A stretch of DNA of 64,000 nt, taken from positions 20,896,001 through 20,960,000 of the forward strand of contig CM059432.1 in assembly GCA_030390025.1 (NCBI GenBank). The letters are read 5' to 3'. The stretch comes from Squalus acanthias. Its lineage: Eukaryota. This document shows, one piece after another, positions 2,950 through 54,669 of this stretch (position 1 is its first letter; each line of letters starts with the position of its first letter). The notes beneath the pieces are model-generated. The model did not search any database, was not told the origin of the DNA, and saw only the letters and a list, made by a program, of their open reading frames with translations. The position numbers and the translations under genes are program-made.

Positions 2950-4625
2950 GGCTGCGATTTTCCCTACCGTGGCGGGTCCTGGCCCCGCTCCTGTCTCCAT
3001 CCCGGCCTCCAACATGATTTTCCCCTGATTGGGCTTGTTAAGCCCGCCCAGCGAGTTCCTGGCCAATTGAAGGAAGCGGGTCTGATGACATAATTTGATG
3101 ACGTGTCATCAGCCAGTTTCCTTAAAGAGACCATGGCCAACTTTAATTTGACAGTTGTGCTGTCAGTGTTCTATAGCATTGAGGTGCTGCAAGCACTGAC
3201 AATCACTGCACAGAGGTGCAGGGCTGCACCCAGGCTCTCCCATGACTCCCTCCATATGATTATAGAGGAAGTCACAGCATGTAGGGAGGTCCTCTTCCCT
3301 TCCCATGTGCGGAAGAGACCTCCCCAGGAGACCAACGCAGCCTGGTTGCACATTGCACAGGAGGACACAAGCAGGGATGTCGTCAGGAGGACCAGGCTGC
3401 AGTGGCGCAAACCTTTCAATGATCTCAGTAGATCACAAAATGTTACTGCCAATCCACACTCAACCTCATCCTGCTGTGCCACTCATCACATCCCCATCAC
3501 TCTGCCTTCCCTACCCTACTCCTGCACATCCTTATTCACACCAAATTACCTTGCACCTCCACCCATCCCTCTCTATCTACATTATCACTTCCTCATCTCA
3601 CTAGCCACCCCTCACACTCAACCTCATCCTTGTCCAATCATACCAACTAACAACACACAAGGGTAGGCACTTGTGTGTTTTAGCCAATGTTCATGTGAAG
3701 TTTCTGTTAATGGGCTGTCAAACATTGAAACCTTTATTTTCAACACTTTGCATTCTTGAACAGATTTGTGCACACCTTTGGAAGTGGCTTAGTGAGTTGC
3801 AGTGAATGGTGAGACATAACGGTACCCCCCGCAATGCTGATGAGTGTGAATGGAATGGCTTGGGCAATGCTGGGATGCTTTATGGTGTTGGTGTGTGGTG
3901 GTGCCAACCTGGCACATCATATGGCAGCCAGGGTGTGCAGCGTCAAGTGAAGTAAATGTGGCCATGGTGAGGCCATCCCTGGCTTCCCGGGCAGCAATGT
4001 GGTCGGGTGCTGATGCCCTATGTCCTGTGCAGCATCAAGTGATTACGGAGAAGGTTGGTGTAGTTGTTGGTGCTGCTGGTATGCCTGGTGGTGCTGGTGT
4101 TGGGGCTGATTGTGGTGGGATTCTGAGGACCAAGGTGAGATAGTATAAAGTGCACCCATGCTGATAGAATAGATGGCAGGTGAAGTAGAGATGACAGAAG
4201 TGATCTGTTAATGGTGGGAGAGGTAATGAGGTCAGACTGCATGGAAACTTGTGTAAAGACTTGCAGCATTCTGAATCTGTAGTGGAAATGCAGTTTAGAG
4301 AAGCTAATGGTTAAGGGAACATTTCTCAATCAGCTGGGGGCTTTGACTTGATATTTGAAGCTGTCAACTCATCAGCTGATTCAATGTCCAGTGACCTCCC
4401 ACCTCAGCTTCACAGACGAGGTCTAGGCACAGCGGGAAACCGGTTGGCGACCTGTCAAATTCAAAAAAACTGGGGGAAAAATCCATTGTTAAGTGGCTGT
4501 AAACAAGCCACTAATGATTTGAACTGGGTCCCCCGCCGCTGCTTGTCGGGTCTGCTCAGCGCTGGCAGACCCGACATCGGGAAATGCAGGTGTGCGCGTT
4601 TTGACAGCGGGTTCCCGACCAAATA
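2950..4625 (+). mobile_element. Non-autonomous PIF/Harbinger element with Myb/SANT-like exon (about 3200-3440); right end approximate
   Basis: Starts ggctgcgattttcc (TIR-like). Translation RAAPRLSHDSLHMIIEEV...AWLHIAQE...QWRKPFNDL is a Harbinger/NAIF1-type Myb domain. About 1.2 kb is homologous to the inverted copy at 26009-28536. Confidence 0.75.
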
Positions 4626-15903: not shown

Positions 15904-16047
15904 TGATATGTATTTATAAACGCCCAGCCAACGGGGCTACAGACATCAACTTCCCAATGAAAGGATGGAGAGGAATGGTTGACTGGGCGAGGAATTCTGA
16001 AGATAAAGTTACTGTTCCAAAAAGCATCTTTTCAACAGGATCAACAG
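15904..16047 (+). CDS. ADGRB1: ADGRB1 coding exon (144 nt): (V)[47 protein letters not shown]
   Basis: poly-T + cag acceptor, gtaaga donor; phase 1/1; BAI-family FPMKG motif. Confidence 0.93.
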
Positions 16048-17944: not shown

Positions 17945-19963
17945 AAATCCAAGACTGGCAGTCAAAACTGTAATCGAACAATGGACTGCCTTTAAAGAGG
18001 AGATGGTTCGGGTACAGTCGAGGTACATTCCCACGAGGCGGAAAGGTAGGGCAACCAAAGCCAGAGCTCCCTGGATGATGAAAGAGATAGAGAGTAAGAT
18101 AAAGCAGAAAAAGGGGCGTATGACAGATGTCAGGTTGAGAATACAAGTGAGAACCAGGTTGAATATAGAAAGTTAAGAGGGGAAGGAAAAATGAAATAAG
18201 ATGGGCAAAGAGAGAGTATGAGAATAGACTGGCAGCTAACATAAAAGGGTAATTCAAAAGTCTTCAATAGGCATATAAATAATAAACGGGTAGTAAGAGG
18301 AGGGATAGGGCCGATTAGGGACCACAAAGGAGACCTACGCATGGAGGCAGAGGGCATGGCTGAGGTACTAGAAAGGCTGGCTGGACTTAAAAGTCACCAG
18401 GACCGGATGGGATGCATCCTAGGATGCTGAGGGAGGCAAGGGTGGAAATTGCGGAGGTACTGGCTATAATTTTCCAATCCTCCTTGGATACGGAGCTGGT
18501 GCCAGAGGACTGGAGAATTGCAAATGTTATACCCTTGTTCAAAAAAGGGTGCAAGGATAAACCCAGCAACTACAGGCCAGTCAGTTTAACCTCGGTAGTG
18601 GGGAAGCTTTTAGAAATGATAATCCGCGACAAAATTAACAGTCACTTGGAAAAGTGTGGATTAATTAAGGAAAGCCAGCACGGATTTGTTAAAGGCAAAT
18701 CGTGTTTAACTAACTTGATTGAGTTTTTTGATGAGGTAACAGAGAGGGTTGATGAGGGCAATGCGGTTGATGTGGTGTACATGGACTTCCAAAAGGCGTT
18801 TGATAAAGTGCCACATAATAGGCTTGCCAGCAAAATTGAAGCCCATGGAATAAAAGGGACAGTGGCAGCACGGATATGAAATTGGCTAAGTGACAGGAAA
18901 CAGAGAGTAGTGGAGAATGGTAGTTTTTCGGACTGGAGGAAGGTATACAGTGGTGTTCCCCAGGGGTCAGTACTAGGACCACTGCTTTTCTTGATATATA
19001 TTAATGACTTGGACTTGGGTGTACAGGGCACAATTTCAAAATTTGCAGCTGACACAAAACTTGGAAGTATAGTGAACAGTGAGGAGGATAGTGATAGACT
19101 TCAAGAGGACATAGACAGGCTGGTGGAATGGGCGGACACGTGGCAGATGAAATTTAACACCGAAAATTGCAAAGTGATACATTTTGGTAGGAAGAACGAG
19201 GAGAGGCAATAAAAACTAAAGGGTGCAATTCTAAAGGGGGTGCATGAACAGAGAGACCTGGGGCTATATGTGCACAAATCATTGAAGGTGGCAGGGCAGG
19301 TTGAGAACGCGGTTAAAAAAGCATACAGGATCCTGGGCTTCATAAATAGAAGCATAGAGTACAAAAGCAAGGAATTACGGTGAACCTTTATAAAACACTG
19401 GTCTGACCTCAACTGGAGTATTGTGTCCAGTTCTGGGCCCCGCACTTTAGGAAGGATGTGAAGGCCTTAGAGAGGTTGCAGAAAAGATTTACAAGAATAG
19501 TTCCAAGGATGAGGGACTTCAGTTACCTGGATAGACTAGAGAAGCTGGGGATGTTCTTCTTAGAGCAGAGAAGGTTGAGAGGAGATTTGATAGAGCTGTT
19601 TAAAATCATGAGGTGTCTAGACAGAGTAGATAGAGAGAAACTGTTCCCATTGGCGGAAGGGTTGAGAACCAGAAGACACAGATTTAAGGTGATTGGTAGA
19701 ACAATCAAAGGTGATATGAGGAAAACTTTTTTACGCAGCGAGTGTTTCTGATCTGGAATGCACTGCCTGAAAGGGTGGTGGAGGCAGATTCAATCGTGGC
19801 TTTCAAAAGGGAATTGGATAAGTACCTGAAGAAAAAAAAATTGAATGGCTACGGGGAAAGGGCGGGGGAGTGGGACTAGCTGAAATGCTCTTGCAGAGAG
19901 CCGGCACGGGCTCGACAGGCCAAATGACCTCCTTCTGTGCTGTAACCATTCTATGATTCTATG
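17945..19963 (+). mobile_element. 5'-truncated CR1 LINE; ORF2 reverse transcriptase disrupted by stops and frameshifts
   Basis: PEDWRIANVIPLFKKG, NYRPVSLTS, YMDFQKAFDKVPH, SGVPQGSVLGPLLFLIYINDL, SKFAADTK; 3' attctatgattctatgat tail. Confidence 0.93.
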
Positions 19964-20268: not shown

Positions 20269-22752
20269 TATGGGTTATCAGGAGAAGTACAATAAAGATC
20301 CTACATGGGACATGACGATTCCTGGGCTATGGAGATGTCATTGTCAATCAATGCCAATGATGAATATGGGTTGTAAAATTAATTCGATATTCTGGAGTTT
20401 TTGGAAGGATACAGCGAAAAAATGTATTGAATCTTTCCTTGGGAGATGAAACGGATTGGGTGCAGCCCATGATAGTTGATTGTACATAAAAATATACGAA
20501 AAATGACAGACAGGAAAGATACTGGTCCATCCAGCCTGTTCCATATAATTGTGCATCATAATACATAGAAACCTGGAAGGAACAGGCTTGGTGGGCTGCA
20601 TGTTTCCATGTCCTCTCATGTTCTTCAATGTAAACATAAAAAGAATGGAATAAAAAAAATATATTTGGTTCAGCAAACCAGCTCCTTCCACAGACCATTG
20701 TCAATCTACCATAGTATGGTCTCTACCCCACTAATTTGATTTATGGCATAATTACTCCTTAATCTTCAGACATAATCAAGGGGAAACTCCAGGATACTTA
20801 ACCATTCCCATACTTGAACAGTTCAATCTGACCTGTTGCCTTCCATCGACAACCCCAGCCCCATCAACGCAGGAGTTGCCGTGTACACTGCCGAGATTCC
20901 CAAGGCTGAAATCTCTACACACATGCTTTGGCAGTAAATAAGCCTGTCGCAAAAAGCTGTTCTGCTTTTTAAGACCTGTAATGTTGCTATGATTTGTCCC
21001 TTGTGGATCTCCTGTACAGAACTTACAACATTATATGGGACACAGGTAGACACTTCAGAACAACAGAAAACAACAGAAAAATACTATCCCCAAAAGGAAC
21101 ACTACTGCCAACAGTATAATACAATTTCACGGTGGTTCTCCATGTAATGCATTGATCAGTCTCTGGTGCTTCCCTGTGGAATGGACTGCTCAGTAGAGTT
21201 TGAAATCGAGTTGAGTCGTTGGAGTTGTTTGATTCTAGATTAAGATTCATAGTACTCACAGTTAGGATGGCATGAATTTCAACCTGATTTTTTTTTTTAA
21301 AGTCATGAGAAGGGCACCAGGACTTTTACAGTTTAGTGCCTCAATGTAGCCAACAGTCCTCAATTTCACCCTGAGTTTACTCTGCTATAGGCCTTTGAAG
21401 ACCTGAGCAGCACACAATTTCCTGGCCTCAATTTGGAGGGAGCACCAATTCCAACCCTACACTCACACAACATATTTAAAATAGCTGAATCTGGGGGGAA
21501 AAAACAGCCAGTTCAGTGAAGATCAAATCAGGCACTTGTGTGAAGCCTGACTTACCAGGAGCAAGCAGAGTGAGCTTCTGTTGAAGGATCTGAAATGTTA
21601 ACCTTTTATTTCTCCAATCTTAAGACACAGCACCATATTATTACAATGGAATATCTGTAGCTGATGTATTCTGTGCACTGGGAGAGGGTTCTTGTGCTAG
21701 TTTTTAATTCAAGTGCATGCAAAACAAATGTAAACTGGCAAACATGCTGTGTATTCCAGCATTTCCTTTGTTGGTTAGGTATTGCACAATACTATTTTTC
21801 AAAAGTCGACCATGATTGAAAGCTGTCATTTTTATCAGGCACCCTTTCGTAAATCGTCCTGCTTCCTTTTACCCTGTCGCCTGCAGTAATGGGGCTTTGT
21901 GCAGTGACATATGAGCTTGTCATGTCTCCTGTTATAAAGACCTGGCTGCCTTTTCTTATGTATTTCACATCTTATGATCTGGGGACAAAAGCCTTCTGCA
22001 GCTGTATCAGTTTCTTTTATCAAATTTGCTTGAAAGGCTCTTGTCTGATGCCGACCTGAGTTGAATGTTACTTGAAGCAGAAATTGGAGAGACATCTCCA
22101 ACATTTCCAATGACAGCCAACATGGCCCTTTTGTGAAGAGACATTTAAAATCTACACATGTACCCTGACCTTCAATAGTTCTGTTTCTGTTAGGGTCTAG
22201 ATCCCTTTGCAGTGAGGTTTCTGTGAAAATTGCATTTTTTTTTGTCATTTTAATTTTAATTAATTTTTGGGTGGGGCTTGACTTCTTTGTGCTTAAGTGT
22301 GAGGGAAGTTAGCACTAGGGAATGGAACTCTTCCTTTTTAGGCACTCAAGCCCCAATTTTAACCGAAGCCACCTGGTGGGAATAGGGCAAATTCAGGTCA
22401 GCAAACCCATTTTACACCCTGCCTGATGATACTCGCCATTGAAGTCAATGGAGTGTAAATCTGGGCGTGGTGTAAAACAGGCGTCTGTCCCGAAGCTGGG
22501 CGGTTAGGTTAAAATTGAAGCTCGAGTGGCAGTATCAAGCGTTATTAGGTCAGCCATCTGTCGAGCAACACCTCCTCTACTTAGCCCTAATCTTGGAAGA
22601 GTAGTCTTCACTGCATCAGTGAGCCATTCCATTCCTCAATATATTCATCTTTGTGAGATTGTAAGGCCAGGTTTTAAGGCAAAGTTTTGTGCTGCAAGCT
22701 AATATTATACGGAAACTAGCTTAACATTTCCCGAATACATATATTATAGAAT

Positions 22753-22961
22753 TCTGGGTTTCCTAGTTCTGACGAAAGGTCATCGACCTGAAAGGTTAGC
22801 TCTGTTTCTCTCTCCACAGATGCCTCAGTTCTGACGAAAGGGCATCGACTTGAAACGCTGACTCTTTTTCTCTCTCCACAGATGCTGCCTGACCTGCTGA
22901 GTATTTCCAGCATTTTCTGTTTTTATTTCAGATTTCCAGCATCCACAGTATTTTGCTTTTG
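22753..22961 (+). mobile_element. Short non-coding Penelope terminal-repeat element with two tandem hammerhead motifs (retrozyme-like)
   Basis: Flanked by 11-bp direct repeat tattatagaat (22742-52, 22962-72); nearly identical to the Penelope 3' end at 54565-54668; internal 62-nt duplication. Confidence 0.85.
22765..22863 (+). ncRNA. Tandem minimal type I hammerhead ribozyme motifs (degenerate)
   Basis: Copy 1: agtt-CTGACGA-a-aggtc/atc/gacct-GAAA-ggtt-agct. Copy 2: agtt-CTGACGA-a-agggc/atc/gactt-GAAA-cgct-gact. Each has substitutions around stem III or the cleavage site. Confidence 0.65.
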
Positions 22962-23562
22962 TATTATAGAATCCTTACAGCTATTATAATGAATAGACTT
23001 TCATCCCATCAGTTTGGGTTAGATTTGAACCCTGGACATAAAAGGCTGGTTGGTATACTAATTTCCCTTTTCCTAATTATTTATATTAGTTTTTCATTTC
23101 TCCACTGAATTTTAGGTGCAGGGAAGGGAGGGCGATAATTTAAACTACTGACCATAAACACTGTAGAGCAGCAATCAATAAAGCAATAGAATATTAACAG
23201 TAGTGCAAGTCAGAGGGTGTTGTGCTAATACTGTGAAGTGGTCTGGTCAGGCAGCACCTTGAGTACTGTTTGGGGCACTTAGACACAAGGGATATTCAAA
23301 TCCTGGAGATGGTGCCGTAACGCATTTGCAGAGGACTGAGTTATGAGGAAAGATTGGAAATACTTAGGCTATTCAGCTTGGAAGAATGTGGCTGAGAGGG
23401 ATCTTCACAGAAGCATCTAAGATAGTAAACGGCACAGGAAATATAAATCCAGAGGACTATTTCAAACTCAACTATGACAGTAGGAAAAGAGGGCACGAGT
23501 TCAACCTAGTAAAAAGTAAACTTAGGACCAATGTCAGGAAATTGTGACCAGCATGTGGAATG

Positions 23563-24800: not shown

Positions 24801-25389
24801 GGTTTTAACCACCTATGCAATTGTTCAATTCTACTGCCCTCCAATGAGGGCTTTTACATTTTCTAATGCAACAAATACAGATAAAATTGACATCATATGC
24901 TGTGGACAGTGATGCAAAAAAAAGGAGTATGGAACGAGACATAGATGGTTCCATTTCTCCCAATTCAAGCGTTTAATTCCAGTCAAACATTTTGCAATTA
25001 TTAAGACACTTTGCTTGGACTAGCCACTTGACAGTTATGGGGAGGTGGTGGGTGAGTGGGGTGGGGGGGGGGGGGGGTGGTTGCCTGGGAAACAGTCTCC
25101 AAGCTTCATTAAACTATCCAAAATCATAATTAAAAGGCATGACTAAAGCTGAAAATTGTCAGAGAAGATGAGGTGAATCAAGAAGTGCTGATTAGGTGAC
25201 TGTCTGTTGAGGGTCACAGATGAGGGGGAGATGCTGCAGCAATATTAACCAGTCTGCTTTATAACTTACCCATAAATGTATGTTTAATCACTTTATAATC
25301 GCTTTATAAGCTCTTCGTTAAGAACTTGTCTACACTTTCCAATGATTCTACTACATAAGTGAATGATAAATCTGTACTTGTATTTGCAG

Positions 25390-25465
25390 AGCCAGATGAT
25401 TCTTCGGTTTATGTGATAGGAACTGTCCTCTATAGAAACCTGGGGGCATTTCTGGATCTTCAAAG
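25390..25465 (+). CDS. ADGRB1: ADGRB1 coding exon (76 nt): (E)[24 protein letters not shown](R)
   Basis: ttgcag acceptor, gtaagt donor; phase 1/2; not in the ORF track, read directly from sequence. Confidence 0.92.
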
Positions 25466-26008: not shown

Positions 26009-28536
26009 GGGCTGAATTTTGCCGGCGCTCAGAGGGTGGGTTCGGAGGCGGGTCTGCTGTCAAAATGGCAGTGATTGACAGCGGGGCGGAAGTCCGCTCT
26101 GAATCCGCCTCCGTGTCAGTTTCCCAAGTGCCGGCTCTGCCTGCGGTTTGCAGACCCGGCACTAAGCGGTGGTTCAGGCAATTGAGATACTTAAGAAGCT
26201 GCTTAAAGGTATTTAAGCAGCATTTTACCAGGTCCTAACGATTTTTCCATGTTTTTTACGAGGTTCCCGGTGCCCGGGGATCATGTCAGGTAAGTGTGTC
26301 GGGTTCTCAATGACTCTGTATTGCTGTGAATAGTTGACTGCTGCAAAAGTGGTATAAAAGCTATCATTTCACAGCTGTTCAATTTCCAATCTTAGAGGCT
26401 GGAGCCTTCAGGATTTGGAATACACTTTTCAGCTTTATGGAGGTTTGAAGTGTTTGGAGCAAACTCTCTATCCAGTGTCACCTTCTTGGAGCAACCTCTC
26501 TTACCACTGACAGATCACTTCTGTCATCTCAGGTTCAGCTGCCATCTATTCCAGCAGCATCGGTGTCCTTGAAAAAATCTCACCTTGGCCCTCAGAATCC
26601 CACCATGATCAGCCCCAACACCAACATCACCAGCATCACTAGGCACACCAGCAGCACCAACAACAGCACCAACCTTCTCCGCAATCATCTGATGCTGCAC
26701 AGGACACAGGGCATCAACACCCGACCACATTGCTGCCCAGGAGGCCAGGGATGGCCACACCATGGCCAGATTTACTTCAGTTGACGCTGTACACCCTGGC
26801 TGCCACATGATGCGCCGTATTGGCACCACCCCACACCAACACCATAAAGCATCCCTACAATGCCCAAGCCATTCCTTTCACACTCATTACCATTGGGCTG
26901 TGGGGGATGGGGTACCGTTATGTCTCACCATTCACTGCAACTCACTAAGCCACTTCCAATGGTGCGCACATATCTATCCAAGAAGGCAAAGGGGTAAAAA
27001 TTGAGTCGCGCCCCATTTGGGGCGCTAACCTCGCCGGGGCGCGACTTTTAGCGCCCCGAAAAAATTAGCGGCCCCGCGCCGGAACTTCAGTGGTTGCGCC
27101 CCAAGAGGGAAGCGGGGCGCAACTGGAAGCAGCCCGCATCCCTCTTGGGGCGCTGCGAGTGAATATCCTGGCGCTACGTGCCGCAGCGCCACGCGCTGTG
27201 GCACGTCGCGCCGCGGTATTGCAGGCCTTCCTCCCCTTCTTAAAGGGGAGGGACCCTGCGCAGCGCGAACCGGGGCCCAGCTGGGCCCCCAGGGATCGGG
27301 AGTGCCGGCAAAAGAGCCCGGCACTCAAGAGAAGTGCCGGGCTCTTGGAGCGCAGCCGGCACTTCACGGTGGGGGGGCTTCACGGGGGCCGGGGGCAGGT
27401 GCTGGCAGGCGGCCAGCAACAAAAATGGCCGCCTGCCACCTCCGCTTTAAATATCGCCGCCCCGGCCGCACGTACGCCTCCCTGAACCCGTCGGACATAG
27501 CGTCTGGCGGTAAATCAGGGGGCGCGACTGAAGATCACGGCCGGGGCGCGAGCGGGGTGCTGCGTACGGCGATGACGTCATCGCCGGCGGCGCAGCGCCA
27601 CAGGGCGCTACCGGCTGCCGCCGCCGCTAACCTCCCACTAAATTTTTCGGGAGGCGTGGGCGGCGCTGCGCCCGGGCGTTAGCTGCTTTACGCCTCATTA
27701 GCGCCCTCTTAAGGCGCTAACGGGAGGCGCAAGCAGCTGAATTTTTCCCCCAAAGTGTTGAAAATAAAGATTTTAATGTTTGACAATACATTAACAGAAA
27801 CTTTCCATGAACATTGGCAATAGCACCCAACTGCCTACCCTTGTGTCTTGTATGATTGGACAAGGATGAGGGTGAGTGTGAGAGGTGGCTAGTGAGATGA
27901 GGAAGTGATAATGTAGATAGAGAGGGATGGGTGGAGGTACAAGGTAAGTTGGTATGAGTAAGGATGTGCAGGAGTAGGGTAGGGAAGGCAGAGTGATGGG
28001 AATGTGATGAGTGGTACAGCAGGATGAGGTTGAGTGTGGCTTTGCAGTAACGTTTCGTGATCTACTGAGATCATTGAAAGGTTTGCGCCACTGCAGCCTG
28101 GTCCTCCTGAAGACATCCCTGCTTGTGCCCTCCTGTGCAATGTGCAACCAGGCTGCGTTGGTCTCCTGGGGAGGTCTCTTCCACCCATTGGAAGGGAAGC
28201 GAACCTCCCTGCGTGCTGTGACTTCCTCCATAAGCATATGGAGGGAGTCATGGGAGAGCCTGGGTGCAACCCTGCACCTTTGTGCAGTGCTTGTCAGTGT
28301 CTGCATCACCTCAATGCTGCAGAACACTGACGGCACAACTGTCAAAATGATTGTGGACATGGTCCCTTGAAGGAAACCCGCTTCCTATTAATTGGCCGGA
28401 AACCTCGCAGGGCAGGCTTAACAAGCCCAATCAACATAAAATCTTGTTGGAGGCCGGGATTGAGACAGATGTGAGGTCCCCACACGCCACGGACCGAGCC
28501 CGCCCCGGACCTGCCGAAGTTGGAAAAATCCAGCCC
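26009..28536 (-). mobile_element. Non-autonomous PIF/Harbinger element with both ends intact and a Myb/SANT-like exon (about 28040-28290, minus)
   Basis: TIRs gggctgaatttt / aaaatccagccc; TSD TGA (26006-08, 28537-39); ORF 27791-28360 contains RVAPRLSHDSLHMLMEEV...AWLHIAQE...WRKPFNDL; no transposase seen. Confidence 0.85.
26991..27751. mobile_element. Family A MITE nested in the Myb-bearing Harbinger
   Basis: TIRs ggggtaaaaattg / gaatttttccccc; TSD AAA, confirmed by the empty site (gcaaagtg) in the paralogous copy near 3745. Confidence 0.9.
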
Positions 28537-34061: not shown

Positions 34062-34171
34062 ATGAGAAGTCGCACAACACCAGGTTATAGTCCAACAGTT
34101 GGACTATAACCTGGTGTTGTGCGACTTCTCATTTTTGTCCACCCCAGTCCAACACCGGCATCTCCGCATCA
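34062..34171 (+). mobile_element. Short Penelope-type terminal fragment with a perfect 35-bp inverted repeat
   Basis: Arms 34062-34096 and 34098-34132; flanking direct repeat tgaaaataacatg (34052-64, 34172-84); same family as 37498. Confidence 0.85.
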
Positions 34172-34516
34172 TGAAAATAACATGGCTCGGTTGCTGTTCA
34201 GCATTCGCAGCTTTATCAACCAGTTGTCCTACTATGACTGGTTGAGTCTTCATTTCATTAAGAAAATAACCTAACTGTATTGTAGCACACAGTCAGTCAA
34301 AGCCACAATGTTACAGTAAGATTCTCTGCCCTGCTCATGATGGGTAACCAGCAACACCAACGTAATTAATTTAAGTCAGCAACTGACACAGAAGCTGTCA
34401 ATAACACAGCCACAGTAGTAAGACCCAGTTATTTTATGCTTTGACTTAAAACAATTAGTACTGCACAGTGTATTTTAAATCATTAACATATTGCTTGTCT
34501 TTTGATTCAATTTCAG

Positions 34517-34619
34517 GAACGCCACAGTGCTGAATTCCAAGATAATCTCGGTTATTGTGAAGCCTTCTCCAAAATCTTTATCCAGCCCTTTGGAAATTGA
34601 ATTTTCTCATCTATATAAT
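34517..34619 (+). CDS. ADGRB1: ADGRB1 coding exon (103 nt): [34 protein letters not shown]
   Basis: tttcag acceptor, gtaagt donor; phase 2/0; GAIN 'LNSxIIS' motif. Confidence 0.93.
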
Positions 34620-36197: not shown

Positions 36198-36241
36198 GGC
36201 ACTACAAATCAGTCGTGCATCGCATGGGATGAAACAGACAC
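36198..36241 (+). CDS. ADGRB1: ADGRB1 coding exon (44 nt): GTTNQSCIAWDETD(T), start of the GPS motif
   Basis: taacag acceptor, gtaagt donor; phase 0/2; CxxW of the GPS. Confidence 0.92.
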
Positions 36242-37497
36242 GTAAGTTTTTAAAAATGTAAAATTCAGTCTACTAACTAAAAATGGCCTCAAAGAACAAT
36301 GCGTTATGTCCAGTTGGAAGTTTAACGAGGAAATTCACTCATATTGCAAAAAGAGTCTTTTTGATTCAGTGTTGGTGAGATTTTCTTAACAGATCTATTA
36401 AATTCATTCATATTTTTATTTATCCAGAATTTCCTTTTTATTTTTGTCATTTGCTCCCCCTCCTTGTCTTCAGACACTGATTGATGTGTTGGGACTGGTA
36501 TCCATATGCCCGCAGTCCTCTGGTATCTCATCCAAGTAGCCATTCTTCCCGTGTGAGTCTAGGCAGTCAATGTCAGGTGGCTAATCATCACGAGGGGCAA
36601 CAAAGCCAAACCTGATCCTATCTTCAATCATATGCACTTTCCAGCAGGAACTTGAGCTGATTTCTTCCCTTTCCTAGCCTGAAATGCTGTGGCCAGTTCC
36701 AGCCCTAGCTGCTGCCTGCTGAGATCAGCTCCGTCAGCACAGATCAGCAATCAAACTTGAGACACTTCTGGTCTGACTGGCTCAGTGCCACATGGGGTAG
36801 TACATTTGCTCACAAATCTATCGGGTCACTTTTCTCATTCCAACTGGTGCTATTTTTTTTATGACAAACTGTTCTCTTTTATAGTATTGCATCTTTATGG
36901 GTGTTATTATTTTGTATGACTGCAAGTCACTCTCAAGCAAAGAGAATTAATCTTGATGGAAATTTTGAGCCCTAAATGTGTTTCGAGGAGTTTTAACTGA
37001 AGCGGTTGCTCAGTTGGCATGTGTACTGATCGTTTTCCAGTCGATTTTATCAGCATCAGTTGTGGCTTCCATTACTTATACATAATATTTAGACCAAGAA
37101 GCTCAGATGCCACAGGACTGCAAATGTCAAGGCTCATCAACCTCTATTGCTCGCTCAGTGCAGCCTCTGTCATCCTTTCTGTTAATGGGTGAAGGGGCCT
37201 GAGTTCAGCAGCTTGACTCAGTTGATGGCTTTATCTACCCGAGGGATTCAAATACATAATTCTCTGAAAGTGTGAGTGTAGGTAGATGAAGCCATAAAGT
37301 TGAGATCAAATTGACTGAAGTCTATCACATTCAGGAGAATGAATTGAACCTTAATTGACTTTGCCTTGCCTAATACACTGCGAAAAATGAAAGTCTAGAT
37401 TACACCCATTTGAAATGCTAACGTGTCAGGGCTAATGAACTCTGAAGTCCTGCCAGTAAATATTTGATTCACACTCAAATCCAATGCATATAATGAA

Positions 37498-37738
37498 ACA
37501 AAAATGAGAAGTCGCACAACACCAGGTTATAGTCCAACAGATTTATTTAAAATTACAAGCTTTCGGAGCTATCGATCGCCCCTTCTTCAGGTAAAGTTAC
37601 TGTCTCAGTAACTTTACCTGAAGAAGGGGCGATCGATAGCTTCGAAAGCTTGTAATTTTAAATAAATCTGTTGGACTATAACCTGGTGTTGTGCGACTTC
37701 TCATTTTTGTCCACCCCAGTCCAACGCCGGCATCTCCG
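37498..37738 (+). mobile_element. Palindromic Penelope-type terminal-repeat element with a hammerhead motif in each arm
   Basis: 105-bp arms 37498-37602 and 37606-37710, 3-nt loop, one mismatch; flanking direct repeat tataatgaaaca (37489-500, 37739-50). Confidence 0.88.
37614..37655 (+). ncRNA. Minimal type I hammerhead ribozyme motif (mirror copy on minus strand at about 37553-37594)
   Basis: ttac-CTGAAGA-a-ggggc/gatcgata/gcttc-GAAA-gc-TT-gtaa: core boxes present, stem I ttac/gtaa, stem II, palindromic AAGCTT stem III. Confidence 0.72.
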
Positions 37739-38555
37739 TATAATGAAACAGAGAGGCCACTGCTTTCTTGACCACTCTACACATTATACTTGAGCATCTT
37801 TTTTTCCTGATTATTTTTCCTCGCATCCATTTTATTCTTTCTAATTTTTCTCTTTCCTTCTGCTAAAGGCACGGCATGTTGGGGAATGGTTCCACGAGGT
37901 GCCCGCAGCCCTATGGTACCTCAACCTAGTGGCCATTCTTCATGTATGAACTGTTGGTATGCTATTTGACCCTGAAAGGTGCAGTTCTTCTGTACTCACC
38001 CAAAATCCATATGCACTGTTCAGCATAGGTCACGAGAGAGATCAGGAAACGACATTTATTCCAGATTACTTCAGCTGATCCTAAACAGCTGCAAAGTTAT
38101 TTAAGAGGTAAATAACTGCAAAGCAAGAAGAGATGTTGGGAGCAACGAGAGGCAGTCATTACCATTCTTACCTTACCTGCTGATTTATGAAACTACCTCC
38201 AGTATACATAGATGAGAGACAGTCGCTTACTTCTAACTACAACAAAGTATCACTTAATCTTTACCATAAGCTATATATCATGTATCAAACCAATAGAATG
38301 TCTCTGCCACTTTCAACAGCTTTGTTAACAATACAATTACCATCCCTCCCCCTTTTGCTGACCATATCTCCAACCTGTTGACTTCACCTCCTCAAATTAC
38401 TCAGTTCACCCTACTCAACTCGGCAATCACCGTTAGTGTCTAATGGGATGCAGCAGCGTCTCAATCAAAGATGCAGCCACATTTTAAATGCAATAAAACA
38501 AGAGGAATCTGACTTTATTTTCCATCTTTAAGAGTGTTAAGGCCTCAAACATAAT

Positions 38556-43218: not shown

Positions 43219-45741
43219 CGGCAGCATAGTGGTTATGTTACTGGACTAGTAATCCAGAGGCCTGGACGAATAATCCAGAGACGTGAGTTCAAATCCCACC
43301 ATGGCAGCTGTGGAATTTAAATTAAGTTAATTAAATAAATCTGGAATAAAGAAAGCTAGCATCAGTAATGGTGACCATGAAACTATCGGATTGTCATAAA
43401 AACCCATGTGGTTCATTAATGTCCTTTAGGGTAGGAAATCTGCCATCCTTACCTGGTCTGGCCTATATGTGACACCAGACCTACAGCAATGTGGTTGACT
43501 CTTAACTGCCCTCTGAAATGACCTAGCAAGCCACCCAGTTGTACACAACCGTTACGAAAAACAATAATAAGAATGAAACCGGATGGACCACCCGGCATCG
43601 ACCTCGGCACCGGCTTCGGATATGACAACGGCACACCCAGCCCAGTCGAACTGGCAAAGTCCTCCTCACTAACATCTGGAGACTTGTGCCAAAATTGGGA
43701 GAGTTGTCCCACAGACTAGTCAAGCAACAGCCTGACATAGTCATACTCACAGAATCATACCTTTCAGCCAATGTCCCAGATTCCTCCATCACCATCCCTG
43801 GGTATGTCCTGTCCAACCGGCAGGACAGACCCACCAGGGGTGGCGGCACTGTGGTATCCAGTCAGGAGGGAGTGGCCATGGGAGTCCTCAACGTTGACTC
43901 CGGACTCCATGGCTTCAGGTCAAACATGGGCAAGGAAACCTCCTACTGATTACCACCTATCACCCTCCCTCAGCTGATGAATCAGTACTCCGCCATGTTG
44001 AACACCACTTGGAAGAAGCACTGAGGGAAGCAAGGGCACAGAATGTACTCTGGGTGGGGGACTTCAATGTCCATCACCAAGAGTGGCTTGGTAGCACCAC
44101 TACTGGCCAAGCTGGCTGAGTCCTGAAGGACATAGCTGCCAGACTGGGCCTGTGGCAGGTGGTGAGAGAACCAACACGAGGGAAAAACCTACTTGACCTC
44201 ATCCTCACTAATCTACCTGTCGCAGATGTATCTGTCCATGACAGCATTGGTAGAAGTGACCACCACATAGTCATTGTGGAGATGAAATCCTGTCTTCAGA
44301 CTGAGGACACCCTCCATTGTGTTGTGTGGCACTACCACCGTGCTAAATGGGACAGATTCAGAACAGATCTAGAAGTTCAAAACTGGGCATCCGTGAGGTG
44401 CTGTGGGCCATCAGCAGCAGCAGAATTGTATTCCACCACAATCTGTAACCTCATGGCCCGGCATATCCCTCACTCTACCATTACCATCAAGCCAGGGGAC
44501 CAACACTGGTTCAATGAGGAGTGCAGAAGAGCATGCCAGGAGCAGCACCAGGCATACCTACAAATGAGGTGCCAACCTGGGGAAGCTGCAACACAGGACT
44601 GCATGCATGCTAAACAGCAGAAGCAGCATGCTATAGACAGAGCTAGGCAATCCCACAATCAATGGATCAGATCAAAGCTCTGCAGTCATGCCACATCCAG
44701 TCGTGAATGGTGGTGGACAACTAAACAACTAACGGGAGGAGGCTCCATGAATATACCCATCCTCAATGATGACGGAGCCTAGCACGTGAGTGCAAAAGAC
44801 AAGGCTGAAGCGTTTGCAACCATCTTGAGCCAGAAGTGCCAAGTGGATGATCTATATCGGCCTCCTCTTGAGTGCCCCAGCATCACAGAAGCCAGTCTTC
44901 AGCCAATTCGATTCACTCCACGTGATATCAAGAAACGGCTGAGTGCACTGGATACAGCAAAGGCTATGGGCCCTGACAACATCCCAGCTGTCGTGCTGAA
45001 GACTTGTGCTCCAAAACTAGCCGCACCTCTAGCCAAGCTGTTCCAGTACAGCTATAACACTGGCATCTACCCGACAATTTGGAAAACTGTCCAGATATGT
45101 CCTGTCCACAAAAAGCAGGACAAATCCAATCCAGCCAATTACCGCCCCATTAGCCTACTCTCAATCATCAGCAAAGTGATGGAAGGTGTCATCAACAGTG
45201 CTATCAACGGCACTTACTCACCAATTACCTGCTCATCGATGCTCAGTTTGGGTTCTGCCAGGACCACTCGGTTCAAGACCTCATTACAGTCTTGACCCAA
45301 AAATGGACAAAGGAGCTGAATTCCAGAGGTGAGGTGAGAGTGACTGCCCTTGACATCAAGGCAGCATTTGACCGAGTGTGGCATCAAAGAGCTCTAGTAA
45401 AATTGAACTCAGTGGGAATCAGGGGGAAAACTCTCCACTGGCTGGAGTCATACCTAGCACAAAGGAAGATGGTTGTAGTTGTTGGAGGTCAATCATCTCA
45501 GCCCCAGGACATCACTGCAGGAGTTTCTCAGGGCAGTGTCCTAGGCCCAACCATCTTTAGCTGCTTCATCAATGGCCTTCCTTCCATCATAAGGACAGAA
45601 GTGGGGATGTTCGCTGATGTCTGCACAGTGTTCAATTCCATTCGCAACTCCTCAGATAATGAAGCAGTCCATGCCCGAATGCAACAAGACCTGGATGACA
45701 TTCAGGCTTGGGCTGATAAGTGGCAAGTAACATTCGCGCCA
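43219..45741 (+). mobile_element. tRNA-headed LINE: Pol III-like head, short leader, then a decayed APE endonuclease-RT reading frame (from about 43656); 3' end absent
   Basis: KVLLTNIW...PDIVILTESYL...RQDRPTRGGG, GDFN, PTRGKNLLDLILTN, SDH (APE); KAMGPDNIP, NYRPISLLS, ALDIKAAFDRVWH, GVSQGSVLGPTIF, MFAD (RT). Confidence 0.88.
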
Positions 45742-46115
45742 CATCACTTTGCTGATGATTCAGAGTAGGCTGATGATTGAGAGTAGACTGATGGGGCGGT
45801 AATTGGACAGATTTGCCCTGCTTTTTCTGGACAGGACAGACCTGGGCAGTTTTCCACATTGTCGGGTTATAGCTGTACTGGAACAGTTTGGCTAGAGGTA
45901 CGGCAGCTGGGATGTTGTCGGAGCCCATAGCCTTTGCTGTATCTGACAACTTCATGGCCACATTTACTAATACCAGCTTTTTGTTCCAGATTTTTTTTAA
46001 TCCAAATTCAAATTCTCAAATTGTCGTGGTGGGATTTGAATTTGCGTTCTCATGGTTATTAGTCCAGGCCTCTGGATTACTCGTCCAGTAACATAACTAC
46101 TGCACTACTGTATCC
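45742..46115 (-). mobile_element. Minus-strand, internally deleted 5' remainder of the same LINE family, including the tRNA head
   Basis: Reverse complement gives DTAKAMGSDNIP...LAKLFQYSYN and the head gtagttatgttactggacgagtaatccagaggcctggac...ttcaaatcccacc. Confidence 0.75.
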
Positions 46116-52109: not shown

Positions 52110-54669
52110 TTCCCTCTCTGACCCCGAACGATCAGTCCTTAGCAAAGACCTGAGCTTCATCCCCTTACGCCCCCATCTCAATGAATTTCGAGCTCGGCAC
52201 GATGCTGAGCTCTTTTTCCGCCGCCTACGTCTCCATGCCCACTTCTTTGGCCAGGAGTCTTCCCCCCGCACAGCTGACCCTTTCTCCCATTTTCAGAACT
52301 CTTGTTCTACCTGGACCCCTCCCTCTGGCCTCTTAACCTCTCTAGATCTTTTCATTGCAAACTGCCAGCGTGACATCGGCCGTCTCAATTTCTCTGTTCC
52401 CCTCACCCACTCCAACCTACCTCCCTCTGAACTTGCAGCACTCCATTCTCTCAGATCCAATCCCAACATTGTCATTAAACCTGCCGACAAGGGTGGTGCT
52501 GTTGTTGTTTGGCGAACTGACCTCTACCTAGCGGAGGCTGAACGCCAACTCTCCGACACCTCCTCCTATCTCCGCCTGGACCATAACCCCACTACTGAAC
52601 ATCAAGCCACCGTTTCCAAGACCGTCACTGACCTCATCTCCTCTGGAGATCTTCCCTCCACGGCCGCCAACCTCATAATTCCCCAACCCCGCACAGCCTG
52701 CTTCTACCTCCTTCCCAAGATCCACAAGCAGGACTGCCCTGGCAGACCCATCGTTTCAGCCTGTTCTTGCCCCACAGAACTATCTCTTCCTATCTCGACT
52801 CTATTTTTTCTCCCCTTGTCCAGTGTCTTCCCACCTACATCCGCAACTCTTCCGACGCCCTCCGTCACTTTAACAGTTTCCAGTTTCCTGGCCCCAATCA
52901 TCTCCTTTTCACTATGGACGTCCAATCCCGCTACACCTCCATCCTCCACCAGGATGGCCTGAGGGCGCTCCGCTTCTTCCTTGAACAGAGGCCCAACCAG
53001 TCCCCATCCACCACCACCCTCCTCTGCCTGGCTGAACTTGTTCTCACATTGAACATCTTCTCCTCTGACTCCACTCACTTCCTCCAAATTAAAGGTGTTG
53101 CTATGGGAACCCGCATGGGTCCCAGCTATGCCTGTCTTTTCATGGGCTATGTGGAACATTCTTTGTTCCAGTCCTACTCAGGTCCCCTCCCTCACCTGTT
53201 TTTCCGGTACATTGATGACTGTATCGGTGCTGTTTCCTGCTCTCGCCCTGAACTAGAAAATTTAATTCACTTTGCTTCCAATTCCACCCTTCCCTCACCT
53301 TCACATGGTCCATCTCCGACTCTTCCCTTTCCTTCCTCGACTTCTCTGTCTCCATCTCTGGGGATAGGCTATTGACAAACATTCACTACAAGCCCACTGA
53401 CTCCCACAGCTACCTGGACTACACTTTCTCCCACCCCGCTTCCTGTAAGGACTCTATTCCATTCTCCGAGTTTCTCCATCTCCACCACATCTGCTCTGAC
53501 GATGCCACCTTCCACACCAGTGCTTCTGACATGTCTTCCTTTTTCCTCAACCGAGGATTCCCCTCTACTGTGGTTGACACAGCCCTTGACCATGTCCGTT
53601 CTATTTCCTGCACTTCTGCTCTCACCCCTTCCCCTCCCTCCTGGAACCTCGATAGGGTTCCCCTTGTCCTCACCTTTCACCCCACCAGCCTCCACATTCA
53701 ACGGATCATCCTCCGCCATTTCGGCCACCTCCAGCATTATCCCACCACCAAACACATCTTCCCCTCACCTCTCAGCATTCCGAAGGGACCGCTCCCTCAG
53801 CGACACCCTGGTCCACTCCTCTATCACCCCCAACACCCCTTCCCCTTCGCCTGGCACCTTCCCGTGCAAGCGCAGGAGATGCAACATATGCCCTTTTACC
53901 TCCACCCTTTCCACTGTCCAAGGCCCCAAACACTCCTTCCAGGTGAAACAGCGATTTACTTGTACTTCTTGAAATTTAGTATACTGTATTCGCTGCTCAT
54001 GATGCGGTCTCCTCCACATTGGGGAGACCAAACGCAGATTGGGTGACCGCTTTGCGGAACACCTCCGTTCAGTCCGTAAGCGTGACCCCGAGCTTCCAGT
54101 CGCCTGTCACTTTAATTCTCCGCTCCACTCCCACTCAGACCTCACCGTCCTCGGCCTCTTGCATTGTTCCAATGAAGCTCAATGTAAGCTCGAGGAACAG
54201 CACCTCTTCTTTCGATTAGGCACTTTGCAGCCTTCTGGACTCAACATAGAGTTCAACAATTTCAGACCATAACCTCTGCCCCTATCCTTTTTTTTCCATT
54301 TATTTTATTTATTTATTTTTTTTCTCTCTCCCACATGGCAGCTGTCTTTCATTCTGCCAGTGCCATTTACACTTCATCTAGAGCCATCTTTTGTTTCTTA
54401 ACTTGTCCCATTACCATCTCCTTTTGCCTTGCACCATCTCTTAATCTCCCTTAATCTTTCCTGCCTTCCATCCTATCACAGACCTTCCCTTTTGTTCTTT
54501 CCTCCCCTCCCACCTTTCCCTGTCCCTGCACTTGCTTAAAAACCTGTTCCATCTCCAGCTTTTTCCAGTTCTGACGAAGGGTCATCGACCTGAAACGTCA
54601 ACTCTGTTTCTCTCTCCACAGATGCTGCCTGACCTGCTGAGTATTTCCAAGCATTTTCTGTTTTTATTA
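52110..54669 (+). mobile_element. 5'-truncated Penelope-like element (Neptune-like): RT + GIY-YIG endonuclease, frameshifted
   Basis: KPADKGG, FYLLPKIHK..PGRPIVS, TMDVQS, GVAMGTRMGPSYA, FRYIDD, HYKPTD, Cys linker CKRRRCNIC, VYCIRC...IGETKR, RFAEH; 12-bp TSD gggaaacatcct (52098-109, 54670-81). Confidence 0.92.
54567..54603 (+). ncRNA. Minimal type I hammerhead ribozyme in the Penelope 3' terminal repeat
   Basis: agtt-CTGACGA-a-gggtc/atc/gacct-GAAA-cg-TC-aact: intact core, stem I agtt/aact, GUC cleavage triplet ending at 54599. Confidence 0.8.

Follow-up and report, generated by a model that had tools for sequence, protein, structure and literature searches.

Introduction

Penelope-like elements (PLEs) carry minimal hammerhead ribozymes which, as described by Cervera and De la Pena (2014, PMC4209133), have no loop 3, contain a palindrome at positions 15.2-16.2, an extra base between positions 9 and 10.1 and a stem I of 4 bp, and occur dispersed in thousands of copies that are associated with truncated PLEs. 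The same study predicts these motifs to act only as dimers, of which even intact versions cleave poorly, and the hosts named in its accessible text are fishes, coelacanth, Xenopus and reptiles, with sharks not among them. Tail-bearing PLE insertions are characterized by two alternative 3' termini, a preference for AT-rich targets, target-site duplications (TSDs) of about 8-14 bp and a hammerhead in the pLTR (PMC11167929, PMC8557442, PMC3846280). The optional tail of 30-40 bp that separates both termini (PMC11167929, PMC8557442) has been linked to two RT start sites in a study of PAc, a Poseidon-type element of Anolis, whose hammerhead was described to need protein, while insertion in vitro does not depend on it (Frangieh et al. 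2024, PMC11167929). Finally, the non-LTR retrozymes of animals are described as non-coding, pLTR-derived sequences with tandem type I hammerheads and TSDs above 4 bp (PMC7229834; Li et al. 2026, bioRxiv 10.64898/2026.07.22.740005), with units of 150-450 nt and canonical motifs in case of the described families that produce circRNAs (PMC7229834).

In this study, we have characterized a 209-nt insert (22753-22961) located in a window of 64,000 nucleotides of shark DNA, to which all coordinates refer. With the minimal hammerheads of PLEs it has in common the missing loop 3, the palindromic 15.2-16.2 segment, the extra base and the short stem I, and its family likewise comprises thousands of copies that are dispersed and associated with truncated PLEs. 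In contrast to the motifs in the accessible text of PMC4209133, the shark family pairs A/G-U at positions 10.1-11.1 instead of the highly conserved G-C, and two motifs, both damaged, are found just 62 nt apart. The target, the TSD, the pLTR hammerhead and the two 3' termini, here separated by 33 nt, are those of tail-bearing PLEs, whereas the doubled segment ends short of the natural termini, unlike in the canonical partial tandem described for these elements, and the partner of the insert carries the CX2-5CxxC linker of Neptune and Nematis rather than belonging to the Poseidon type as PAc. The insert also resembles the described animal retrozymes in its non-coding nature, its derivation from a pLTR, its tandem type I hammerheads and the length of its TSD, but its motifs are minimal rather than canonical, neither unit is complete, 76 nt of the PLE end are located outside of the repeat and, compared to retrozymes producing circRNAs, its unit is only 62 nt long. 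Among the titles listed in the literature searched on shark PLE hammerheads, none concerns this family, although the chondrichthyan list of Li et al. (2026) may include the unit described here.

The insert is an ordinary fossil of a PLE terminus and not a new kind of mobile RNA. An initial annotation had described it as a retrozyme-like unit mobilised by the Penelope family. Its non-coding and PLE-derived character, two properties that it shares with retrozymes, withstands closer inspection, whereas the likeness to retrozymes gives way to the description of a single 5'-truncated PLE end with tail, which resembles very many other copies.

Results

Boundaries and organization of the insert

The insert is bracketed by an exact direct repeat of 11 bp, TATTATAGAAT, which was identified in a repeat search at 22742-22752 and 22962-22972 and which has no further occurrence on the + strand of the window, in agreement with the TSD that had been proposed. 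An extension of this repeat to 14 bp (to 22755) introduces one mismatch. At the composition of the window, the probability of a given 11-mer is 5.6e-7, or about 6e-5 if 100 registers are allowed. The AT content at 22720-22752 amounts to 76%, compared to 55% for the whole window, and an exact TSD in AT-rich DNA is a property expected of a truncated PLE copy. Among the 15 joints listed of 636 in the contig runs, none corresponds to an empty target site, and the TSD is therefore assigned from the sequence itself.

All segments of the insert are read on the + strand. It starts with six nucleotides outside of the family (22753..22758), reduced to GGG (22756-58) in case of a 14-bp TSD, which are probably untemplated or derived from the junction. 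The blastn match to a coding PLE copy in the same window begins at 22759 with unit 1 (22759..22823), a pLTR fragment that is cut short at both ends and that is 92% identical to 54562-54625 over 65 columns. In the alignment of the repeats, a junction of 3 nt (22824..22826) leads into unit 2, whose hammerhead (22827..22863) is followed by the remainder of the unit and the 3' part of the pLTR up to the first family terminus (22864..22928). The optional PLE tail of 33 nt (22929..22961), delimited by loose 3' ends in the contig runs, extends to the second family terminus and borders the right TSD (22962..22972). The insert is composed of pLTR and tail sequence.

A related Penelope-like element in the same window

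Unit 2 and the part downstream of it are 92% identical to 54566-54668 over 103 columns. The annotated match to the 3' terminus of a coding Penelope at 54565-54668 was confirmed at this level of identity, except for the last 33 nt (22929-22961), which have no counterpart there. The related copy (52110..54669, + strand) encodes an RT and a GIY-YIG-type endonuclease, is flanked by a 12-bp TSD and stops at the first family terminus without a tail, and the homology of the insert to the pLTR of such an element is a second property expected of a truncated PLE copy. While the end of a PLE is thus present as annotated, the copy that had been termed coding is dead, since it is 5'-truncated and contains three frame changes and two stops in the endonuclease frame, which rules it out as mobiliser of the insert. 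Its RT finds its best matches in sharks, with relatives that contain GIY-YIG domains (PF01541) aligning up to 54245, and the alignment to three relatives of 905-957 amino acids begins no earlier than their residue 189-238, at the left TSD of the copy. The linker CKRRRCNIC (CX4CX2C) conforms to the CX2-5CxxC pattern preceding the GIY-YIG domain, which is described to define Neptune and Nematis alike (PMC8557442). Judged from its sequence, the partner element is classified as Neptune-type, by a mark that is common to Neptune and Nematis.

The pLTR of this copy contains an intact minimal hammerhead (54567..54603, + strand) with an ACGU palindrome and a GUC cleavage triplet, which, paired with a copy of its own as a double hammerhead, forms 22 of 22 pairs. 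The element splits a further repeat fragment on the − strand, with open frames at both sides that presumably read like the end of a LINE RT.

Two damaged hammerheads

The CTGACGA cores begin at 22769 and 22831 within a direct repeat of 59 nt that is 88% identical and spaced by 62 nt, which bears out the two CUGACGA...GAAA motifs described at this distance. Hammerhead 1 (22765..22801, + strand), a minimal type I motif, consists of stem I (22765-68), CUGACGA (22769-75), stem II (22777-89, with 5/5 pairs) and GAAA (22790-93), and its would-be cut is located after 22797. It carries a G at position 15.2 (22794) and another at 22799. In hammerhead 2 (22827..22863, + strand), whose core boxes are intact, stem II contains a G.A mismatch at 22842 and a G-U pair at 22850, U16.1 is replaced by C (22858) and a G is found at 22860. 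The substitutions at 15.2 and 16.1 are the ones quoted previously (GAAAgGTT; GcT). Both units have kept the CUGANGA and GAAA boxes and stems I and II, with one mismatch in stem II of unit 2. In contrast, the palindromic 15.1-16.1 tetramer with a UH site, which is found in the coding copy and in the majority bases of the family, reads AGGU in unit 1 and ACGC in unit 2, and two of the four pairs of helix III are lost at the locus. The Rfam scan of the window has provided six matches at E<=1 but no hammerhead at the insert, and the assignment is therefore based on the motif and on published minimal descriptors. At seven positions the units differ with the coding copy siding with the other unit (two changes in unit 1 and five in unit 2), and in both of them an A takes the place of the G of the coding copy at 22777/22839.

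The two palindromes of a double hammerhead form a helix of four pairs, across which the core of one unit cuts the site of the other and vice versa. Of its 22 pairs, 19 are kept at the locus. At 15.1-16.1, the core of unit 1 facing the site of unit 2 has an A.C mismatch, which blocks cleavage according to the established rules for hammerheads. The core of unit 2 formally keeps the conserved bases when facing the site of unit 1, with damage in stem II, so that both hammerheads are damaged as proposed, whereas the suggestion that both may be inactivated is to be refined. Because the second cleavage site is broken and at most one site is left, no 62-nt unit would be releasable, and the locus is probably inert today. 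Folding is a weak guide in this respect, as even the intact motif disfavors the active dimer, with a predicted energy of −9.9 kcal/mol for the double-hammerhead fold compared to −32.5 kcal/mol for the minimum-energy fold, and the whole tandem is predicted to fold no better than shuffled sequences (z −0.57).

Abundance and termini of the family

Public contigs of four runs (24 listed) were matched to 22450-23250 at 80% likeness, which yielded 41,619 contigs in organism A, the organism of the window, where about 55% of the run was covered, 4,088 in B, 83,990 in D and 91,003 in E. Depth, which is not equivalent to copy number, is concentrated on the insert, where its sum reaches millions compared to 8-20 on single flank contigs. 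The PLE family of the insert is very abundant. In all four runs, loose 3' ends heap at 22927-22929 and 22960-22962, as expected for two alternative termini separated by a tail of 30-40 bp, with the coding copy ending at the first and the insert at the second. Family contigs carry other upstream pLTR sequence beyond 22765, which identifies the 5' end of the insert as a truncation, and at 22767 one joint among those listed changes to the opposite strand, as would be expected of inverted pLTRs. In the X5 run, the majority base at 22794 is C (82%), at 22799 it is A (97%) and at 22858 it is T (74% of the depth there), and it is thus the locus of the insert that deviates while the family core is intact. 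At 22860, G makes up 53% of the depth in organism D and 39% in organism E. In diverged copies, the consensus before 22871 (loose ends of X5 and X8) reads GAAA followed by TATT, with an agreement of only about 0.5. It is possible that this variant reflects an AUAU palindrome replacing ACGU, which would be compensatory for the dimer helix, or else a mixture.

A 30-nt family pattern had 0 matches in metagenome contigs, and phage records contained no match to the family pattern. Three matches of a 19-nt pattern in metagenome contigs, together with four matches in genome contigs and one in viral contigs, were dismissed as chance, with only 19-25 nt alike around the pattern. The window contains 0 tRNA genes and the insert thus no tRNA-type SINE head.

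Recurrence of the tandem

The depth on the hammerhead of unit 2 (22828-22854) amounts to 0.83, 1.92, 1.16 and 0.68% of its combined depth with 22774-22800 in the four runs, which is an upper bound on tandem copies, as single-unit copies with a better fit to unit 2 contribute to it. With a share of at most about 1-2% of the hammerhead depth, the tandem is not among the main forms of the family. Among the 32 pieces listed of about 226,000 in the four runs, none crosses 22823-22827, the junction of the insert itself being absent there too, and the longest repeat pieces begin at 22825-26. De Bruijn contigs break in near-consensus repeat sequence, and a ceiling of about 1% is still compatible with many copies.

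Unit 1 ends at 22823, which in the register of unit 2 is 43 nt short of the first natural terminus, and since it stops before either terminus, the doubling does not correspond to a canonical partial tandem. Both units start within a few bases of stem I, and their junction offers no microhomology that would single out a mechanism. The finding that none of the seven changes is shared would favor an early duplication if the A at 22777/22839 is ancestral (P 0.06 for a duplication halfway, 0.26 at 30%). Five of the six CpGs in the units survive, with a deamination-type change in none, compared to such changes in at least five of nine CpGs of the left flank in organism E. Although based on small numbers, this pattern and the G at 22860 hint at two RNA templates that might have been joined in reverse transcription. 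A 62-nt circle was dismissed as sole source of the insert, as it cannot supply the 76 nt beyond unit 2 (22886-22961). An assembly artefact is unlikely in light of the differences at 7/59 positions, although the junction is absent from the listed contigs.

Host gene and age of the insertion

The GAIN domains of ADGRB3 or ADGRB2 are matched, in the correct order on the + strand, by exons located at 2058-2126, 15904-16047, about 25380-25464 and about 34515-34617. The exon upstream of the insert (15904..16047) matches ADGRB3 with an E value of 3.5e-14. For the downstream exon (25380..25464, with approximate bounds), the values are 0.0011 to ADGRB2 and 0.042 to ADGRB3, and its residues are consecutive after those of the upstream exon. 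Because exons of the ADGRB family flank it in order on the same strand, the insert is intronic and in sense orientation to its host gene, as had been proposed. While the PDB matches are those of ADGRB3 and ADGRB2, the paralogue is presumably ADGRB1 and the segment at 36199-36241 presumably a further exon of this gene. A motif scan downstream of 36241 did not detect the exon expected next, for which reason the coding PLE is probably located, also in sense orientation, in one of the later introns of this gene.

In organisms D and E, orthologous contigs enter the insert from the left flank and extend to 22787, which corresponds to 35 nt of the insert. Over 338 nt, they contain 8 substitutions in D and 22 in E. 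Since both carry the boundary between flank and insert, the insertion predates the splits from these organisms; it is old and present in at least three organisms, with the contigs of D and E covering the insert only to 22787, before the altered positions. The seven changes in about 160 comparable nt of the insert are of the same order as the divergence of the flank. In X5 (about 55% read), a flank contig ceases to match at 22647, beyond which it continues for 22 letters, and cover is absent at 22666-22746, a break that possibly reflects a polymorphism in the sample or contigs that were not read.

Discussion

The described properties are most readily understood if the insert is a truncated PLE end, consisting of pLTR and tail, with a segment that was doubled in a single event and that is now decaying, an explanation that we regard as likely. 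The insert is non-coding and originates from the PLE family of the window, and its insertion must have been carried out in trans by proteins of this family, with the RT and the GIY-YIG endonuclease generating a 5'-truncated retro-copy of a non-coding PLE end. In this process, the endonuclease would have nicked AT-rich DNA, reverse transcription would have started at the end of the tail (22961) and stopped few bases upstream of stem I of the hammerhead, and a staggered second nick would have led to the TSD of 11-14 bp. The doubling of 62 nt might either result from re-priming or a template jump at insertion, which we slightly favor, or from an early local tandem duplication, and the locus would later have become fixed before it decayed. 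While the homology, the family termini, the majority bases, the presence in relatives and the broken pairs are observed, these steps are inferred. They are in general agreement with the description of PLE insertions as mostly 5'-truncated and capable of seeding local tandems (Li et al. 2026), and the insert can be viewed as first step on the route from PLE ends to tandem retrozymes proposed in that work, which has apparently stalled at two units.

As an alternative, the insert might belong to a minor non-autonomous retrozyme-like subfamily, mobilised by PLE proteins, whose master RNA carried both hammerheads and the tail and whose intact form could adopt a double hammerhead and release a 62-nt RNA. 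The spacing of 62 nt would permit a double-hammerhead geometry (with an inner stem I and a 25-nt loop), vertebrate pLTR-derived retrozyme families are reported to span 51-972 bp and to include one from a chondrichthyan (Li et al. 2026), and a small subfamily could be accommodated below the depth ceiling of about 1-2%. However, the junction is not crossed by any of the listed pieces, neither unit contains the complete motif that Li et al. (2026) require of a retrozyme, and the retrozymes described to produce circRNAs have canonical hammerheads in units of 150-450 bp (PMC7229834). Minimal dimers, besides their poor cleavage (PMC4209133), have also performed badly in Xenopus, where one of nine predicted dimers was cleaved and eight were not (Li et al. 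2026), and the predicted energies quoted above disfavor the double hammerhead even for the intact motif. We thus consider such a subfamily unlikely. Its more elaborate version, in which a small shark subfamily would contain a doubled 62-nt pLTR segment ahead of the tail, intact members would form a double hammerhead releasing a 62-nt RNA, and intronic sense copies would be preferentially disabled, the studied locus being one of them, appears yet more doubtful, although its 62-nt unit would, if true, be among the shortest of any retrozyme.

The preferential loss of sense copies touches on the proposal that the hammerheads were inactivated because of their orientation. Accordingly, a doubled hammerhead that was once competent for cleavage would have harmed the host pre-mRNA, and selection would have fixed the substitutions in the palindromes. 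The insert is indeed sense to its host gene, both ACGU palindromes are altered (with a chance of 0.039 given two and five substitutions), six of the seven substitutions fall inside the hammerheads (6/74 nt compared to 1/87 nt, Fisher p 0.049), and retrozymes are reported to be fewer than expected in introns of Xenopus (Li et al. 2026). Still, both statistics are post hoc and borderline (p 0.04-0.05), and a third cut, which considers the 13 critical positions per unit, finds two of seven changes compared to 1.5 expected (P 0.48). Moreover, the CUGANGA and GAAA boxes are unaltered, some of the seemingly private bases, such as the G at 22860 in organisms D and E, are common family variants, an intact core in the same window is also in sense orientation (54567-54603), and a harmful allele would be unlikely to reach fixation in at least three organisms. 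Selective inactivation is thus at best weakly supported and the described scenario very improbable. Even less credible is a working single-site intronic ribozyme, where a type III-like composite fold would enable the core of unit 2 to cut the site of unit 1 after 22797. Such a composite would keep the conserved core bases, A15.1-U16.1, C15.2-G16.2 and a stem I of four pairs, and a bulged helix III of four pairs can be drawn, but its stem II contains a mismatch, the predicted pairing probability is 0.0 for all composite helices, the best predicted fold containing it reaches −6.2 compared to −32.6 kcal/mol, and the folding of the tandem does not exceed that of shuffled sequences, as noted above.

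As found, the locus of this decaying PLE end matters little, and it is the family as a whole that is more useful, since its many copies would allow a comparison of sense and antisense intronic insertions that could probe the cleavage by minimal PLE hammerheads in vivo.

Other elements in the window

A second hammerhead-bearing family is represented by a palindromic mini-insertion at 37489-37750, which is flanked by a TSD of 12 bp (37489-37500 and 37739-37750) and whose arms of 105 nt each (37498-37602 and 37606-37710) are 99% complementary. Each arm contains a minimal hammerhead with an AGCU instead of an ACGU palindrome in stem III, resulting in one core per strand, and the insertion looks young and intact. 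A perfect palindrome of 53 nt at 34071-34123, where an Rfam microRNA match occurs by chance, has arms that are identical to part of those of the larger insertion (37514-37539 and 37670-37695) and, by this identity, is probably a shorter insertion of the same family. Myb/SANT-like DNA-binding domains, as carried by Harbinger-type transposons, are encoded in two frames (3094-3663 on the + strand and 27794-28384 on the − strand), and RT fragments of other retroelements are found at 18391-18876 and 45154-45765, both on the + strand.
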